DNA of 63,956 nt, the filler included, from Acidimicrobiia bacterium (GTDB lineage Bacteria > Actinomycetota > Acidimicrobiia > Spongiisociales > CAZKJJ01), in NCBI GenBank assembly GCA_046759765.1. It is 3 parts of 3 records of this genome, joined end to end, with 100 filler letters (N's around TTAATTAATTAA, not from the genome) between each part and the next. Parts side by side here need not be neighbours in the genome. Positions count along the whole stretch, not along the records: positions 22,531 to 43,779 come from JBHICV010000027.1; 2 more parts are not named here. The stretch is one strand, 5' to 3'. Below are positions 687 through 26,065 of this stretch, in pieces. The notes beneath the pieces were generated by a model, which worked only from the letters and a program-made list of their open reading frames with translations, had not been told where the DNA came from and made no database searches. The position numbers and the translations under genes are program-made. The stretch's first letter is position 1. Every line of letters starts with the position of its first letter.

Positions 687-1922
687 ATGCCGAACCCGGA
701 AGTCGTTGTGGTCGGCGGAGGACCCGCTGGATCCGCCGCCGCCTACCGCCTCGCAGAAGCGGGGCGGGACGTCTTGCTTGCGGAGCGTAAGTCGTATCCG
801 CGGGAGAAAACGTGTGGCGACGGTCTCACGCCGCGCGCCATATTCGCGCTTCAGGAGATGGGTTTTGATTTCGAGGTACCGACGTTCCATAAGGTCGACG
901 GCATTCGTTCGTACGCGGGAGACGATTACCTCGAGCTGACGTGGCCGCAGCACTCGCAGTTTCCTGCGTGGGGGGGTGTCATTCGCAGGTCGGACCTGGA
1001 CGAGCAGGTGGTGGCTCTGGCTCGAAAGCAGGGCGCAGCGGTTTCTGAGAACACCGAAGCCCGCCCGTTGCTGGTCGATGGAAGCCTCGAGGGAGTCGAG
1101 CTGGTATCCGATGGCGAGACGGAGACCATGAACCCGTTAGTGGTGATCGTGGCCGACGGATCGCTTTCGCGGTTCGGCCGAGCTCTGGGCGCGGAACGTC
1201 GCCGGGACTACCCGTTGGGCCTGGCCGCTCGGGCCTACTGGACCAGCCCGAGAGCCGATGATCGATTCATGGAGAGCCAGCTCGACCTCCGCGACGCAAG
1301 AGGCGACACGCTGCCCGGGTACGGCTGGGTGTTCCCACTCGGAGACGGAACCGTCAACGTTGGGGTGGGTTTGTTGTCGACCTTCAGGCGCTGGAAGGAC
1401 GTCAACACCACCACGATGCTCTACGACTACGCCGCTAGCGCACCGGACTATTGGTCGATCTCGGAAGAAACGCGGCTGACCGATCCGCGCGGCGGCAAGC
1501 TGTCGATGGCTCTATCCCTCGGGCCCTTGGTGGGGCCTAATTGGGTGGTAGTAGGCGACGCGGCCGCGGCCATCAATCCGTGGAATGGAGAGGGGATCTC
1601 TCTCGCCTACGAGACGGGCAGGATGTCTGCGGAGGTGGTACACGCCGCCCTCGAGGCCAATGATCTCTCGCTTCTCTCCCGATACCCGCAAGAGTTGAGC
1701 GACACCTACGGCGACTACTACCGCTTCGCCCGCCTGTTCGGCAGGGCGATCGGCCGTCCGACGGTCATGAGGTCGCTGGCCCACGTCGGCCTCAACTCCA
1801 GGCCGCTGATGGAGTGGGTGCTCACGGTGATGGCAAATCTGCTCGAGCCATCCGAGCGAGGCATAGGCGAACAGGTTTATCGAATGCTCGAGCGGCTGGT
1901 CCGGGTCACGCCCGGCTTCTAG
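687..1922 (+). CDS. Geranylgeranyl reductase family FAD oxidoreductase (MenJ-like menaquinone reductase)
   Basis: GGGPAG FAD motif, REKTCGDGLTPRA, GYGWVFP, GDAA..NP.NGEGI; position just upstream of nuo as in actinobacteria. Confidence 0.85.
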   Translation: MPNPEVVVVGGGPAGSAAAYRLAEAGRDVLLAERKSYPREKTCGDGLTPRAIFALQEMGFDFEVPTFHKVDGIRSYAGDDYLELTWPQHSQFPAWGGVIRRSDLDEQVVALARKQGAAVSENTEARPLLVDGSLEGVELVSDGETETMNPLVVIVADGSLSRFGRALGAERRRDYPLGLAARAYWTSPRADDRFMESQLDLRDARGDTLPGYGWVFPLGDGTVNVGVGLLSTFRRWKDVNTTTMLYDYAASAPDYWSISEETRLTDPRGGKLSMALSLGPLVGPNWVVVGDAAAAINPWNGEGISLAYETGRMSAEVVHAALEANDLSLLSRYPQELSDTYGDYYRFARLFGRAIGRPTVMRSLAHVGLNSRPLMEWVLTVMANLLEPSERGIGEQVYRMLERLVRVTPGF

Positions 1923-21607: not shown

Positions 21608-22430
21608 TTAGGCCACCAGCAACGGTACCTCCCGCTCCTCCGGCTCCAGCCCGCCGTGAAATCCGATCCAGCGGAAGCCGACCGAAGGGACGAGAAGCGC
21701 CTTTCCGGTGTTGGCAAGCAGGCACAGATCCGGGGTTCGATCGGGAAGGCGGGGATGGTCCTCGCCCTCGGGTCCCCACAAGGAAAGGAGCTCGTCGCCC
21801 CCGACCAACGTGGCGGGCAATGAGTCGAGGGTTTCGAGGGCCTCGCTCGGCCCTCGGGCGTACAGCGCCCTGGGCTCGCCGGCGAAGCCCACCTCGGAAG
21901 GCTCCTTGACCTCCACCACGGCGTCTCCGACGTAGTCGACATGACCGTGATCAGCCGTGCCAAGCAACGCCGAGCCGCCCGGCAGACGCGCCGCTAGCTG
22001 ATCCCAGATGCGCCCCACCACACGCATTGCATCGTCGTATTCGTTTGACGATTGGCCGGAGGTGTGGGCGGCAACGTCGACATGGGGAACATAGGTGAGG
22101 ACGAAGCGGCGAGGTTTGGAGGCCAGATCCAAGGTGGCGTCGATGAGGTCCTGTGCCGACCAGGCGGGCTCGAGACGGCATCCACGGTAGAGCATGCGCG
22201 ACAAGGGTGAATCCGCAAAGTGGCCCGGCTGCACGGTGATGGGCTCAACTCCGCCGGCCGAGAGCCTTTCCCATAGATTCGGCGCCGGCAGGACGGCCGC
22301 GTAGTCGGCCTCGATTGGGTCACCCCAGGGAGATGTCCACCGCAGCACATTCACCGGCGGTGAAATTCCCTCAAACCACATCTGGTAGCCGACGATCCCG
22401 TGCCGGCGCGGGACGAGGCCCGTGGCCACG
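21608..22430 (-). CDS. Alkaline phosphatase/nucleotide pyrophosphatase family protein (5' truncated at contig end)
   Basis: ATG..P..HGIVG, YVPHVDVAAH, TADHGH, GFHGGL. Confidence 0.8.
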
Positions 22431-22530
22431 NNNNNNNNNNNNNNNNNNNNNNNNNNNNNNNNNNNNNNNNNNNNTTAATTAATTAANNNNNNNNNNNNNN
22501 NNNNNNNNNNNNNNNNNNNNNNNNNNNNNN
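22431..22530. other. Artificial contig linker (N run containing TTAATTAATTAA)
   Basis: 100 nt with a six-frame stop linker; genes are truncated on both sides. Confidence 0.97.
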
Positions 22531-22652: not shown

Positions 22653-23558
22653 CTACGACGAAGGAGCGAGCTGGCTCACCACCGCACCAAACGACACCAG
22701 AGCAATACCCGCCACCTCCGCCAAACCGGGCACTTCACCGAGGAACAGCCAGGCCAGCAAGGCGATCTGCACCAGCATCGTGTTGTTGATCACCGCCGAT
22801 TCCGTTGCCGATAGGCGCCGCAAGCTGAAGTTCCACAGCGTGAAGGCCAGTGCGGTGTTGACGAGGGCCAGCCAGGAAATAATCAACCAGCCCCGTGCCG
22901 ACAGGCTCGGAATCCCTTCCACGGCTACGCCGGCGCCTAGGAGGACGAGTGCTCCGGTAGCCATGCTCACCGCCGTGACGGTTACGGGAGGAAGGGCTTG
23001 GGTTCGGTTGATTGCTCTTCCCAGTAGTGCCGAGATGGAATTTGCCACCAGCGCGGTAAGTGCGGCGATCATGCCGACGACCGTGGCTCCGAGGTCACCG
23101 ACGAAGTAGAGGAGTGCGCCGGATACGACAAGCGCTACCCCCGCGGCCTGGCGGCTGCTCGCCCTTTCGCCGAGCGTGAGCGAGGAGAGGCCGACCACCA
23201 CTATTGGGGACATGGCGAGGAGGAGGCTCGTAGTGGCGGCAGGTTGGTTGTCGATGGCGACGAACTGGGCGCCCTGGGTTAGGGCGTAGAAGACAAGGCC
23301 TAGTACCACGAGTCTGCCGACAACCTTCCGACTGACCCGTTGGATCGACTCCCTCTGCCCGACTGCCACGACAGTGGCTAGGGCTGCCGCGGCTAGGACA
23401 TAGCGGAGGCCAGCGAACGTGATGGGCTCGAGTCCTTCGTCGTCCAGACCCCACCGGATCAGCACCCACGACGAGCTCCACAGGAATGTGACGAAGAGCG
23501 CCGCCAGCACCGCAGAGCGATGTGCCCTCGATTCTGACGTCGGTTGCTTGACGGACAC
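22653..23558 (-). CDS. EamA/DMT family transporter
   Basis: About 10 TM helices in two repeats, FLWSSSW, LGE motifs; GAGGAG 5 nt before GTG. Confidence 0.9.
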   Translation of the reverse strand: MSVKQPTSESRAHRSAVLAALFVTFLWSSSWVLIRWGLDDEGLEPITFAGLRYVLAAAALATVVAVGQRESIQRVSRKVVGRLVVLGLVFYALTQGAQFVAIDNQPAATTSLLLAMSPIVVVGLSSLTLGERASSRQAAGVALVVSGALLYFVGDLGATVVGMIAALTALVANSISALLGRAINRTQALPPVTVTAVSMATGALVLLGAGVAVEGIPSLSARGWLIISWLALVNTALAFTLWNFSLRRLSATESAVINNTMLVQIALLAWLFLGEVPGLAEVAGIALVSFGAVVSQLAPSS

Positions 23559-23585
23559 GGGGGCTCCTCGGCACGGCTTACTCGT

Positions 23586-23704
23586 GCCGACGTCTCCCCT
23601 CGAGGCTTTTGTCCGTTGAGGTGCTAGCCCGTGCTTGGGCCTTCTGTGGCGCTTGGACCGGTCCCCGCAAGAGCGAGCGGAACCCTAGCCACCCTTCAGT
23701 CGAC
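23586..23704 (-). ncRNA. ykkC-family riboswitch, divergent variant, in the 5' UTR of the EamA gene
   Basis: Minus strand reads GUGGC-UAGGGUUCCG-CUCGC(UCUU)GCGGG-GACCGGUCCAAG-C-GCCAC...GCCC(AAGCAC)GGGC-UAG-CACCUCAACGG-ACAAAAG-CCUCGAGGGGAG; all ykkC hallmark blocks occur in order. Confidence 0.85.
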
Positions 23705-23711
23705 GACTGCC

Positions 23712-23717
23712 AGGCTA
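23712..23717 (-). promoter_or_regulatory. Putative -10 element (TAGCCT) of the riboswitch-EamA transcript
   Basis: TAnnnT hexamer of the type seen before many starts in this window; implies a TSS near 23704. Confidence 0.55.
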
Positions 23718-23745
23718 CCGGTCTCGACGCTTTCCGAGGAGACGA

Positions 23746-23900
23746 TTACCGCAGGTCCTCTACCGACCGGTTTCCAGGCAGGTCAAGAATCTCGGAATCG
23801 CCGGTCAACAGAACCGCGTCATGAGACGCGGCGGTGGCAAGGGCAAATGCGTCACCGAGGGCTACTGGATGCTCAGCCTTGATGGCTACCCTCGCTGGCT
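23746..23900 (-). pseudogene. C-terminal remnant of a PIN-domain (VapC-like) nuclease
   Basis: AIKAEHPVALGDAFALATAASHDAVLLTGDSEIL resembles the C-terminal half of PIN; the upstream frame is merely antisense to tag. Confidence 0.6.
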
Positions 23901-23901
23901 G

Positions 23902-24465
23902 ATGCAGCGGTGTGAGTGGGTTCCGGTCGATGATCCGCTTTTCGTGGCCTACCACGACGAGGAGTGGGGTGTCCCGGTTCACGACGATCAGACCCATTTC
24001 GAGTTCCTAATTCTCGAAGGCGCCCAGGCCGGGCTCTCATGGCGCACCATCCTGATGAAGCGGGAGAACTACCGCGACGCCTTCGAAGGCTTCGATCCCG
24101 TCAAGGTGGCCGCCTACGACGAAGGCAAGGTCGCCGAGCTGCTCGAAAACCCGGGGATCGTTCGAAACCGGCTGAAGGTCACCTCTGCGGTCGACAACGC
24201 CCGCCACTTTCTCGACGTTCAGGCCGAGTTCGGCAGCTTCGACAAATACCTATGGGGCTGGGTCGGTGGCCAACCGGTAGTAAACAGCTTCAAGAAGATG
24301 GAGGAGATCCCGGCTAAGACACCACTAGCCGAAGACCTGAGCAAGGACCTGAAGAAGCGGGGCTTTAGGTTCGTTGGACCGACCATCATCTACGCACATC
24401 TGCAGGCGGTTGGCGTCGTCAACGACCACACTGTCGACTGTTTCAGGTACGCGGAACTCACCTGA
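23902..24465 (+). CDS. tag: DNA-3-methyladenine glycosylase I
   Basis: MQRCEW, YHDEEWG, LEGAQAGLSW, GFRFVGPT, VNDH...C. Confidence 0.95.
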   Translation: MQRCEWVPVDDPLFVAYHDEEWGVPVHDDQTHFEFLILEGAQAGLSWRTILMKRENYRDAFEGFDPVKVAAYDEGKVAELLENPGIVRNRLKVTSAVDNARHFLDVQAEFGSFDKYLWGWVGGQPVVNSFKKMEEIPAKTPLAEDLSKDLKKRGFRFVGPTIIYAHLQAVGVVNDHTVDCFRYAELT

Positions 24466-24499
24466 AACCGGCCGCCCCTATAGCATCGAGGGCGATGCC

Positions 24500-26065
24500 A
24501 TGACCAGCCGCCCGACCGGCACCGTTACCTTCCTGCTGACGGACATCGAGGCCAGCACGCGGCTCTGGGAGCAGAGCCCGAGAGTCATGAATGAGGCCGT
24601 CGCCTGGCACGACGAGGTCCTTCGTCGCATTATCGAACGCAACGGCGGCTTTGTCTTCACGACGGCGGGCGACGCCTTTGCGGCAGCTTTCTCCGATCCG
24701 ATGCTGGCCGCCGCAGCCGCGGTCGAGGCCCAACACGAGATCGGTGCCCGCGAGTGGGAGGAAGTCGGAGCGCTTCGCGTACGGATGTCGCTTGACACAG
24801 GCATCGCGCAGGAGCGCGACAACGATTACTTCGGGCCTCCGGTCAACCGGGCGGCGCGGATTCTCTCCCTGGCGGACGGGGAACAGGTTCTCGCCTCTCA
24901 TACCACGGCCGACCTGCTCCGACACCACCTCGACGAAGGGATACGCCTCGAGAATCTAGGTGAGCGCAAGCTCAAGGATGTCGAACAGCCCGAGCGGGTC
25001 TTCGCGGTCGAGTACGGTCCTGCGCGGCCTGATGAGGCTCCTAAACCGGGTCGGGCGGTTATCAGGGCCGGCATCGTCATAGGCGCCGCGGCTCTGGCTG
25101 TCGTGCTGGCGGTGCTGCTTCTCGGAGGTAGCACTCCGCCTGAGGTAGGGCTGGTCTATGGCGGCAGAACAGGGTTCGGAACCTACGACGATCTCCTGGC
25201 CAGCGGACTCGAGCAGGCCGGGCGGGAGTACGACTTCGAGGCGGTTGAGATTGCCATCCTTACCGACCCGGAGGAGGACTTCCGCCGCCTCGCCGAGACC
25301 GGTGCCGACCTGATCATCAGCGGCGGCAGCCTGTGGGTCGATGGCTTCCGGCTGGTTGCGGAGGACTTTCCTGATCTGGACTTCGCCATTGTCGATACGA
25401 CGGTCGACTTGCCCAATGTGCTCTCCGTAGTGTTCGCCGAGGAGGAAGGCTCCTACCTCGTGGGTGCCGCAGCCGCGCTCAAATCGGAGACCGGAGTCAT
25501 CGGCTTCGTCGGAGGCTTTCAAACGCCCCTTATCGAAAGGTTCCAGGCGGGCTACGAGGCGGGCGCTAGGGCTGCCCAACCGGATATCGAGATAATCGCT
25601 ACCTATGTTGGAAGCTTCTTTGATCCGGAGCTCGGACAGCAGGCGGGTACAGCGCTCTATAGAAACGAAGCCGACGTCGTCTATCACGCGGCCGGTGGCG
25701 TCGGGTTCGGGCTGTTTCAAGCTGCCCACGACCTGACCCCCGAGCTGGGACGCCATCTCTGGGCGATCGGCGTCGATACGGACCAGTGGCTGCAGGCTCC
25801 CCCTTCCATCCAGCCCCACATCCTGACCTCGATGATCAAACGCGCCGACGTGGCGATTCGCACGACGATCGCCGACTACGTCGAGGGAACCTTCGAGCCG
25901 GGTGTTCGCGTTTTGGGGTTGGCCGACGAGGCGCTCGATTTCTCTGTTGCAGGCGGATTCGTGGCGGACGTCGCCAACGTGGTCGGCCGTCTGAAGCTTC
26001 AAATCATCGATGGCGTGATCGAGGTGCCGGTGGTTCCGACCGTAGAGCCCATTCCGACTACATAA
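24500..26065 (+). CDS. Class III adenylate/guanylate cyclase - TM - BMP (PnrA-like) substrate-binding domain fusion
   Basis: TVTFLLTDIEAST, TAGDAF, DYFGPPVNRAAR; one TM; FAEEEGSYLVG, GFVGG, IGVDTDQ, ILTSMIKR. Confidence 0.85.
   Translation: MTSRPTGTVTFLLTDIEASTRLWEQSPRVMNEAVAWHDEVLRRIIERNGGFVFTTAGDAFAAAFSDPMLAAAAAVEAQHEIGAREWEEVGALRVRMSLDTGIAQERDNDYFGPPVNRAARILSLADGEQVLASHTTADLLRHHLDEGIRLENLGERKLKDVEQPERVFAVEYGPARPDEAPKPGRAVIRAGIVIGAAALAVVLAVLLLGGSTPPEVGLVYGGRTGFGTYDDLLASGLEQAGREYDFEAVEIAILTDPEEDFRRLAETGADLIISGGSLWVDGFRLVAEDFPDLDFAIVDTTVDLPNVLSVVFAEEEGSYLVGAAAALKSETGVIGFVGGFQTPLIERFQAGYEAGARAAQPDIEIIATYVGSFFDPELGQQAGTALYRNEADVVYHAAGGVGFGLFQAAHDLTPELGRHLWAIGVDTDQWLQAPPSIQPHILTSMIKRADVAIRTTIADYVEGTFEPGVRVLGLADEALDFSVAGGFVADVANVVGRLKLQIIDGVIEVPVVPTVEPIPTT

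Follow-up and report, generated by a model that had tools for sequence, protein, structure and literature searches.

What does the leader of an EamA-type transporter gene recognize, and to which class of riboswitch, if any, does it belong? We asked this of a leader found in a 63,956-nucleotide (nt) stretch of DNA (the window) from assembly GCA_046759765.1 of an Acidimicrobiia bacterium, made up of three contig parts joined by spacers. An initial annotation, read from the sequence, had proposed that the minus strand between 22653 and 23704 holds a divergent ykkC-family riboswitch together with an EamA gene, and had called it an atypical or orphan subtype and a candidate new system. By sequence comparison, the leader is a genuine member of the ykkC-fold riboswitch family and, in all likelihood, a new example of a known orphan class. 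Its orphan, nonguanidine character was thus borne out, but the system is probably not new, as EamA-linked variants have already been published as subtype 2d. Taken as a whole, the leader is probably best explained as a subtype 2 ykkC riboswitch, likely of subtype 2d, in which bound ligand would turn the gene on by way of a helix, P0, that joins the two ends of the aptamer.

A ykkC-fold aptamer precedes an EamA gene

Each of the ykkC hallmark blocks named in the initial annotation was found in place on the minus strand. P1 is formed by GUGGC (23692-23688) and GCCAC (23650-23646), between which lie UAGGGUUCCG, a CUCGC/GCGGG hairpin and GGUCCAAG, and the 3′ part of the aptamer reads CAC..GG-ACAAAAG-CC..UCGAGGGGAG. 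The blocks as first delimited ended at 23593; they were correct, but that extent leaves out 23693-23707 at the 5′ end and 23586-23592 at the 3′ end, which are part of the aptamer. With these included, and with relatives counted as distinct sequences of the family described below, the aptamer and its gene are composed as follows.

23586..23707, minus strand: whole aptamer (P0, P1/P1a/P1b, P2, P3 and tails), scoring 128.6 bits against covariance model R1 (below) over model positions 1-123
23699..23704, minus strand: 5′ strand of P0, GUCGAC, pairing with 23586-23591
23693..23698, minus strand: 5′ junction between P0 and P1, UGAAGG, whose G-A-A-G-G is kept in 43, 52, 49, 49 and 51 of 53 distinct relatives
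23646..23692, minus strand: P1 region, in which 23688-23692 pairs with 23646-23650 and encloses UAGGGUUCCG, the P1b hairpin and GGUCCAAGCG
23651, minus strand: subtype marker, a C in 53 of 53 distinct relatives
23626..23641, minus strand: P2 hairpin, GGCCC/GGGCU, with changes on both sides at 4 of 5 pairs
23598..23623, minus strand: CAC and P3, CCUC..GG-ACAAAAG-CC-UC-GAGG, with near-invariant letters and the signature CCUCGAGG
23606-23612, minus strand: A-rich loop of P3, inside the preceding segment
23592..23597, minus strand: linker between P3 and P0, GGAGAC, with the pattern G-G-A-N-A-N (G 51, G 51, A 47, N, A 51, N of 53)
23586..23591, minus strand: 3′ strand of P0, GUCGGC, common to the 5′ arm of the hairpin that follows
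22653..23558, minus strand: EamA/DMT transporter gene, 301 amino acids (aa), GTG start, two Pfam EamA domains

The Rfam family RF00442 (Guanidine-I) matched 23596-23699 on the minus strand over model positions 1-107 with 46.3 bits, at an E value of 3.3e-7 in a search of 501 nt (23400-23900) and of 4.3e-7 against the whole 2.73-Mb, 308-contig assembly. This match was obtained at an E-value threshold; the gathering score of the family is 63 bits, and a default Rfam scan of the window gave no hit because 46.3 bits falls under it. The leader contains a P1 with an internal loop and P1b, a P2, a P3 with an A-rich loop, and the blocks UAGGGUUCCG, GGUCCGAG and AAAAGCC, which are invariant or nearly so across 53 distinct sequences. 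Together with covariation in P1, P1b and P2, the match confirmed the ykkC fold that had been recognized by eye. The downstream gene was likewise what it had been taken for, as the open reading frame (ORF) at 22653-23558 matched the two EamA domains with an E value of 8.6e-38. A second RF00442 candidate in the source genome (G000:C17:9439-9526, minus strand; locus L002) was insignificant (20.8 bits, E value of 0.2).

The leader belongs to a family with a covarying P0 helix

Among 151 genomes of the same order, 15 gave RF00442 matches, all below threshold (34.5 to 55.8 bits, none reaching 63), and these 15 leaders could be aligned almost letter for letter. From them we built the covariance model R1, with 123 positions and 33 pairs. 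R1 matched 8 of 151 genomes in an even sample of the class and 9 of 151 in an even sample of the phylum, a tally that includes an unpublished genome (G341, locus L028) used for no other claim. The genome matches came to 63 copies, 53 of them distinct, with scores of 72.7 to 136 bits.

The family was also approached from its protein. An alignment of the EamA proteins, searched against genome contigs, yielded 220 relatives, of which 80 were kept; by title these are mostly from Acidimicrobiia metagenome-assembled genomes (MAGs), with Nitriliruptorales and many “Chloroflexia” MAGs besides. When the leaders of these homologous genes were collected, a check proposed in the initial annotation, 45 of the 80 loci had an R1 match immediately before the gene and in its orientation (72.8 to 136 bits). 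Metagenome contigs scanned with the P3 motif of the family held at least 120 stretches, and all 80 fetched loci of this set, selected by the family's own P3 motif, matched R1 (78 scored at least 61 bits; of the other two, one was truncated at a contig end and one matched weakly, with 18.5 bits). In total, the family exceeds 100 distinct copies in genomes and metagenomes, mostly of Acidimicrobiia.

In the 63 genome copies (53 distinct), 95.4% of the cells over all 33 R1 pairs were standard pairs, compared with 33 to 48% when the partners were slid, and the values observed for the 19 pairs with changes on both sides were reached by 0 of 500 shuffles. The alignment was fitted to the model, which favors the structure, and relatedness among the sequences inflates the shuffle test. 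Across the 53 distinct sequences, changes on both sides were seen at 3 of 5 pairs in P1, 6 of 7 in P1b and 4 of 5 in P2. In P0, each of the 6 pairs varies on both strands, with 95.3% of cells paired; its variants include GUCGAC/GUCGGC, CCGAU/AUCGG, GUCGGU/GGCCGGC and CCGGA/UCCGG. P0 joins the two aptamer ends around the P1-P2-P3 core.

P3 behaved differently. The initial annotation had described an extra outer stem, CCUC/GAGG; its letters are there and almost invariant, but none of the 4 pairs changes on both sides in the 53 distinct sequences. As the outer pair is broken in 8 of the 53 and no compensatory change accompanies this, the stem is neither supported nor refuted. The GG/CC pairs of P3 never vary.

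An RNA subclade stood out in 11 metagenome loci (L117, L121, L130, L135, L140, L143, L146, L147, L158, L179 and L182), marked by a 5′ GAUGG junction, CAUCU, GAGGAGACAGGUCGGC and a shifted P0 (CGACC/GGUCG). Given enough downstream DNA, its RNAs precede EamA proteins that score higher against Pfam EamA (E value of about 1e-40); L146 has too little downstream DNA, and L158 yields only a 55-aa N-terminal piece. In a set of loci from Chloroflexia-titled MAGs (L037, L040, L042, L046, L050 to L053, L055, L057, L065, L097, L099, L102, L104 and L106), the EamA orthologue has no aptamer and seems, by eye, to follow directly on a conserved upstream coding sequence with an alike C-terminal region.

The aptamer and the EamA gene seem to form a unit

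An EamA gene lay downstream in 13 of the 15 same-order aptamer loci (that of the window and 12 of the other 14). The remaining two were L015, with a glutamate dehydrogenase gene, and L010, where the frame scanned, which was not that of its 316-aa ORF, gave no family. Among the metagenome loci, EamA followed in 72 of 80, in 51 by the first frame and in 21 by a second, which was scanned where the first gave nothing because crude ORF calling often chose wrong frames in GC-rich loci. The other eight comprised four with less than 140 nt downstream, L113 and L176 with isochorismatase-like ORFs, L139 with an EamA fragment, and L126, which carried the weak RNA match. Neither a TauE gene among the 95 downstream genes examined nor a NUDIX or HAD gene downstream of the aptamer was found.

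The upstream neighbors of 41 aptamer loci were mutually unrelated (138 of 152 candidate ORFs scanned, 14 dropped), so aptamer and EamA gene together resemble a self-contained unit, at least on the upstream side; the downstream side was examined by crude ORF calling. The most divergent same-order RNA, L014, has a partner protein only 23% identical to the others, and the best NCBIfam match of this protein is to TIGR03340 phn_DUF6 (127.7 bits over the full length, under the cutoff).

Two of the loci named above have features of their own. Several conserved letters are altered in the L015 aptamer (1495-1617, minus strand, in genome G054), which there reads CCAGGG, CAUCU and GAAC, is without the usual hairpin and precedes a large NAD-glutamate dehydrogenase gene; possibly the transporter was lost and this aptamer is what remains. 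On the metagenome contigs of L113 and L176, a long ORF with an isochorismatase domain lies 160 nt past a good aptamer (118.3 bits), and EamA is not seen.

Pocket letters separate the family from guanidine-I

In guanidine-I aptamers the marker is an A (A38 in D. dadantii, A46 in S. acidophilus) and the pocket floor a G (G67 in D. dadantii), whereas subtype 2 RNAs have pyrimidines at the marker, a position that by itself sorts gene contexts (PMC5340920 and PMC6031431, in their accessible text, as for all papers cited here). We mapped both positions by alignment to the Rfam consensus and by eye. The departure from guanidine-I at these pocket positions was uniform: in all 53 distinct relatives the marker is C and CAC is followed by C, then by U, in place of the G-G of guanidine-I. 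With a pyrimidine at 23651 and an EamA gene downstream, the leader has the marks of subtype 2, and the marker C and the C after CAC imply that it should not bind guanidine. Conserved across more than 100 copies, the altered letters are not a product of decay.

The family and Guanidine-I (RF00442) have in common the P1/P1a/P1b, P2 and P3 layout and the docking blocks UAGGGUUCCG, GGUCCGAG and A-AAAAGCC. They differ in the C marker, in the C-U that replaces the floor and its neighboring G-G, in the P0 helix, and in genes, the EamA-linked family not being tied to carboxylase, SMR or ABC genes. Canonical guanidine-I copies from other Actinomycetota (L024, L027 and L029 to L031) read GAGAG, CACGG and CACGGCGGGA..CCCGGGAG and scored 27.7 to 50.4 bits with R1; in the 151 same-order genomes, no canonical guanidine-I was found at an E value of 0.001 or better.

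That Guanidine-I is the best and only meaningful Rfam match would fit a diverged guanidine-I riboswitch that still senses guanidine, with EamA as the guanidine exporter. The DMT superfamily includes guanidine exporters, and the authors who described 2d proposed a guanidine-like ligand (PMC5912903). Even so, we consider guanidine sensing very unlikely: the score, 46.3 bits, misses the gathering score of 63; all or nearly all copies have C for the marker A and C for the floor G; binding by the D. dadantii aptamer drops about 200-fold with G67A and about 10-fold with A38G (PMC5340920); and the subtype 2 RNAs tested do not bind guanidine (PMC7266159).

A candidate promoter and a P0-competing hairpin flank the aptamer

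Three further elements on the minus strand bear on how the aptamer might act.

23712..23717, minus strand: -10-like hexamer TAGCCT (TANNNT), 7 nt before P0
23568..23590, minus strand: hairpin UCGGCACG-AGUAAGC-CGUGCCGA, -18.5 kcal/mol by RNAfold for the segment
23564..23568, minus strand: Shine-Dalgarno-like AGGAG, 5 nt before the GTG start, its first A closing the hairpin

A TANNNT hexamer ended 5 to 8 nt before P0 in 51 of 53 distinct genome relatives, compared with 0 of 53 in a control window 20 to 27 nt upstream, and one ended 4 to 10 nt before P0 in 68 of 69 distinct metagenome copies. A sigma-70 consensus scan found no promoter. Given the hexamer just before P0, the transcript is predicted to start at or beside P0.

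Pairing within the hairpin was kept in 90.2% of cells across 48 distinct relatives, compared with 21 to 51% with slid partners, and a GGAG-like motif follows it in relatives. Because GUCGGC is common to P0 and the hairpin, the two are mutually exclusive. The lack of a U tract argues that the hairpin is not a classical terminator and makes translational control more likely. The one terminator-like site, at 23592-23606 on the plus strand, was rejected as an artefact, since it is simply P3 with its A-rich loop read as the reverse complement.

The ykkC subtypes known so far are ON switches whose expression platform involves P0 (PMC6031431); on this basis we propose that ligand locks P0, dissolves the hairpin and permits initiation. 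Transcription would start beside the -10-like hexamer, so that the RNA begins with the 5′ strand of P0. Binding of the ligand would let GUCGAC and GUCGGC, at the two ends, form P0 around the P1-P2-P3 core. In its absence, the 3′ strand of P0 would instead pair downstream, giving a stable hairpin that abuts the ribosome-binding site and keeps expression low. Ligand would thereby switch on the transporter, which probably exports the ligand or a close relative of it. The ON direction, translational control, export and identity with 2d are all points that we infer.

The family most likely corresponds to orphan subtype 2d

Subtype 2d was defined as ykkC variants upstream of EamA genes (first annotated as phn_DUF6) and TauE transporter genes, with no ligand assigned (PMC7266159 and PMC5912903). 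The published guess is a small guanidine-like cation (PMC5912903). We found no 2d ligand in the literature, where papers of 2020 and 2023 still call the class an orphan, and no row of Table S2 in PMC9881157, which has a column for 2d-model scores, had an EamA, DMT, DUF6 or TauE neighbor. The gene context of our family agrees with 2d, both in the EamA genes at 13 of 15 and 72 of 80 loci and in the phn_DUF6-like partner of L014. The 2d candidates have the same ykkC fold, a marker pyrimidine and EamA/phn_DUF6 genes downstream. Compared by prose description, the leader therefore most likely belongs to this published class.

As far as these papers show, three features add to published accounts of 2d: the P0 helix with tails like those of PRPP and ppGpp riboswitches (described below), the -10-like hexamer before P0, and the P0-competing hairpin near the ribosome-binding site. 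Together they suggest an ON switch.

Several observations pull against assigning the leader to 2d and against ON switching through P0. Hairpin covariation was no better than in shuffles (131 of 500; 48 distinct relatives), and RNAalifold predicted no structure from the hairpin alignment. No U tract follows the hairpin, and no terminator-like site was found on the minus strand. In partition-function modelling with P0 enforced or blocked, the mean accessibility of the ribosome-binding site differed little (0.44 and 0.38, respectively) and was higher with P0 enforced in 32 of 52 cases. Among the EamA orthologue loci, 35 of 80 have no aptamer (one of them, L081, had no upstream DNA to examine), and conversely the glutamate dehydrogenase gene of L015 and the isochorismatase-like ORFs of L113 and L176 show that the aptamer can be followed by other genes. 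The family has P0 and conserved extensions, while the accessible text on 2d mentions such extensions only for 2a to 2c (PMC5912903). Finally, since 2d is known here by description, identity with it is drawn from gene association and the marker.

Alternatively, this could be a separate, as yet unnamed EamA-linked ykkC subtype, with P0 and tails like those of 2a to 2c, its own invariant CCUCGAGG P3 and a ligand different from that of 2d. The 2d consensus is described as closest to guanidine-I (PMC5912903), P0 covaries at 6 of 6 pairs, the tails resemble PRPP/ppGpp examples by eye, and TauE was absent from the 95 downstream genes. On the other hand, the family has the gene association of 2d, including the phn_DUF6-like partner of L014, and the same marker pyrimidine. 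Early subtype 2 models missed structural features that were added later (PMC7266159), and as the metagenome set was picked by the family's own P3 motif, it would miss TauE-linked forms whose P3 differs. We therefore regard a separate subtype as rather unlikely and keep the assignment to 2d.

The absence of an assigned ligand, and of covariation support for the hairpin and the lower stem of P3, would also suit a leader that senses no metabolite, for instance a structured RNA bound by a protein or one acting through its hairpin only. This we find scarcely credible, because the full set of ykkC tertiary contacts is kept (UAGGGUUCCG, GGUCCGAG and the A-rich loop), a set that goes with a ligand pocket in every solved member (PMC5340920 and PMC6031431), and because conservation is strictest at the letters next to the pocket.

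No RNA fold illustrates better than the ykkC scaffold how a single architecture can be retuned to widely differing ligands, and 2d is the scaffold's last named class without one. Although the window adds no new class, the comparative set supplies more than 100 distinct copies, a fixed predicted transcript start at P0, a covarying P0, an invariant CCUCGAGG and a gene unit that seems to stand alone. It thereby defines a full-length construct and narrows the kinds of ligand worth testing.

The aptamer ends resemble those of PRPP and ppGpp riboswitches

The riboswitches for phosphoribosyl pyrophosphate (PRPP; subtype 2b) and guanosine tetraphosphate (ppGpp; subtype 2a) have, like the EamA-linked family, an end-joining P0 that is common to the expression platform (PMC6031431 and PMC9881157); here all 6 of its pairs change on both sides. 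Further features in common are a 5′ GAAG-type junction, the marker C with its neighboring G (53 of 53), a C directly after CAC, and a P3-P0 linker rich in purines. The PRPP/ppGpp examples in Table S2 of PMC9881157 have GGAAAG or AGGAAG at the 5′ end and ...GGAUAGGU followed by P0 at the 3′ end, and by eye these resemble the tails seen here. In many relatives the P3-P0 linker is the octamer GGAUAGGU, which by eye is also present in two PRPP-type examples of that table. In the solved aptamers for PRPP and ppGpp, contacts to the phosphates or to their metal ions come from the 5′ tail, the marker G-C, the linker purines and the C that follows CAC (PMC6031431). For the nucleotide-like ligand suggested in the initial annotation, the evidence points both ways: the RNA has the P0 and tails of the phosphate-binding subtypes, but the guess in print for 2d is a guanidine-like cation (PMC5912903).

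Differences were equally evident. By eye, each P3 strand is one or two nucleotides longer here, and CCUCGAG is invariant. The linker position that aligns by eye with the PRPP-contacting G104 is variable (G 24, A 15, C 12 and U 2 of 53). The associated gene encodes a transporter and not a biosynthetic enzyme, and the GC-rich hairpin, beside the ribosome-binding site and with no U tract, is unlike a terminator. The published P3/linker pattern and the amino acid or purine biosynthesis genes of 2a and 2b were not found, given the longer P3, the invariant CCUCGAGG and the EamA genes; the gene context of 2c, the (d)ADP/(d)CDP subtype, was not found either, as NUDIX/HAD genes were not seen downstream.

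The features in common raise the question of whether the family senses a ligand already known from the P0-bearing subtypes (ppGpp, PRPP or ADP/CDP) in a new gene context, as P0, the GAAG-type junction, the marker C with its G, CAC-C and the frequent GGAUAGGU linker would allow. We think this unlikely in view of the longer P3 strands, the invariant CCUCGAG block and the variable G104-aligned position (by eye). EamA also lies outside the gene sets of 2a to 2c, which comprise branched-chain amino acid, glutamate, natA, purine and NUDIX/HAD genes (PMC7266159), 2c being judged here by gene context and not by sequence.

Retaining subtype 2d as the preferred class, we tentatively suggest by analogy that the EamA-linked class is built like the polyanion-sensing subtypes and that its ligand could be a small anionic metabolite bearing a phosphate, phosphonate or sulfonate, with EamA as its exporter; we hold this as possible, though doubtful. 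The suggestion is made because P0, the 5′ GAAG junction, the G-C marker pair and the adenine-rich linker hold phosphates through Mg2+ in the PRPP/ppGpp aptamers, and it fits the phn_DUF6 and TauE partners in print. If it were true, earlier screens may have missed binding if their constructs lacked P0 or if they aimed at guanidine-like cations.

The transporter and its surroundings

The best NCBIfam match of the transporter was TIGR00950, “2A78 carboxylate/amino acid/amine transporter” (96.4 bits, under the cutoff of 230). Related EamA/DMT transporters (TIGR00950 2A78, the O-acetylserine/cysteine exporter EamA, the aromatic amino acid exporter YddG and TIGR03340 phn_DUF6) have, as here, two EamA repeats in about 300 aa, but the protein falls far under the cutoffs of the curated families (96 versus 230, 32 versus 472 and 27 versus 300 bits). 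Searched as a single sequence, it had no match among solved structures at E values up to 0.01; a profile search gave one borderline match, 5y78, a putative hexose phosphate translocator (E value of 0.043, 16.5 bits). With family scores this far below the cutoffs and no structure found by sequence, the substrate cannot be read from homology, and identifying the ligand would assign a substrate to a widespread EamA clade that homology leaves unannotatable.

A divergent gene lies on the other side of the leader.

23821-24465, plus strand: 3-methyladenine glycosylase gene

We considered this gene as a clue to the ligand and rejected it, as the domain occurred in 0 of the 138 scanned ORFs upstream of the 41 aptamer loci. 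Positions 22431-22530 of the window are a spacer with stops in all six frames that joins two contigs (a run of N, TTAATTAATTAA and N), with contig C26 at 1-22430 and C27 from about 22531. The riboswitch-gene unit thus sits on the second contig about 120 nt from its start, limiting the view past the EamA gene. Just before the spacer, an ORF with a type I phosphodiesterase/nucleotide pyrophosphatase domain (21608-22429, minus strand) is cut by the contig end. On the plus strand, a 563-aa ORF at 24374-26065 combines an adenylate/guanylate cyclase domain (residues 45-202) with a PnrA/Bmp-type substrate-binding domain (residues 278-552), so that a nucleoside-binding lipoprotein fold is fused, unusually, to a cyclase.

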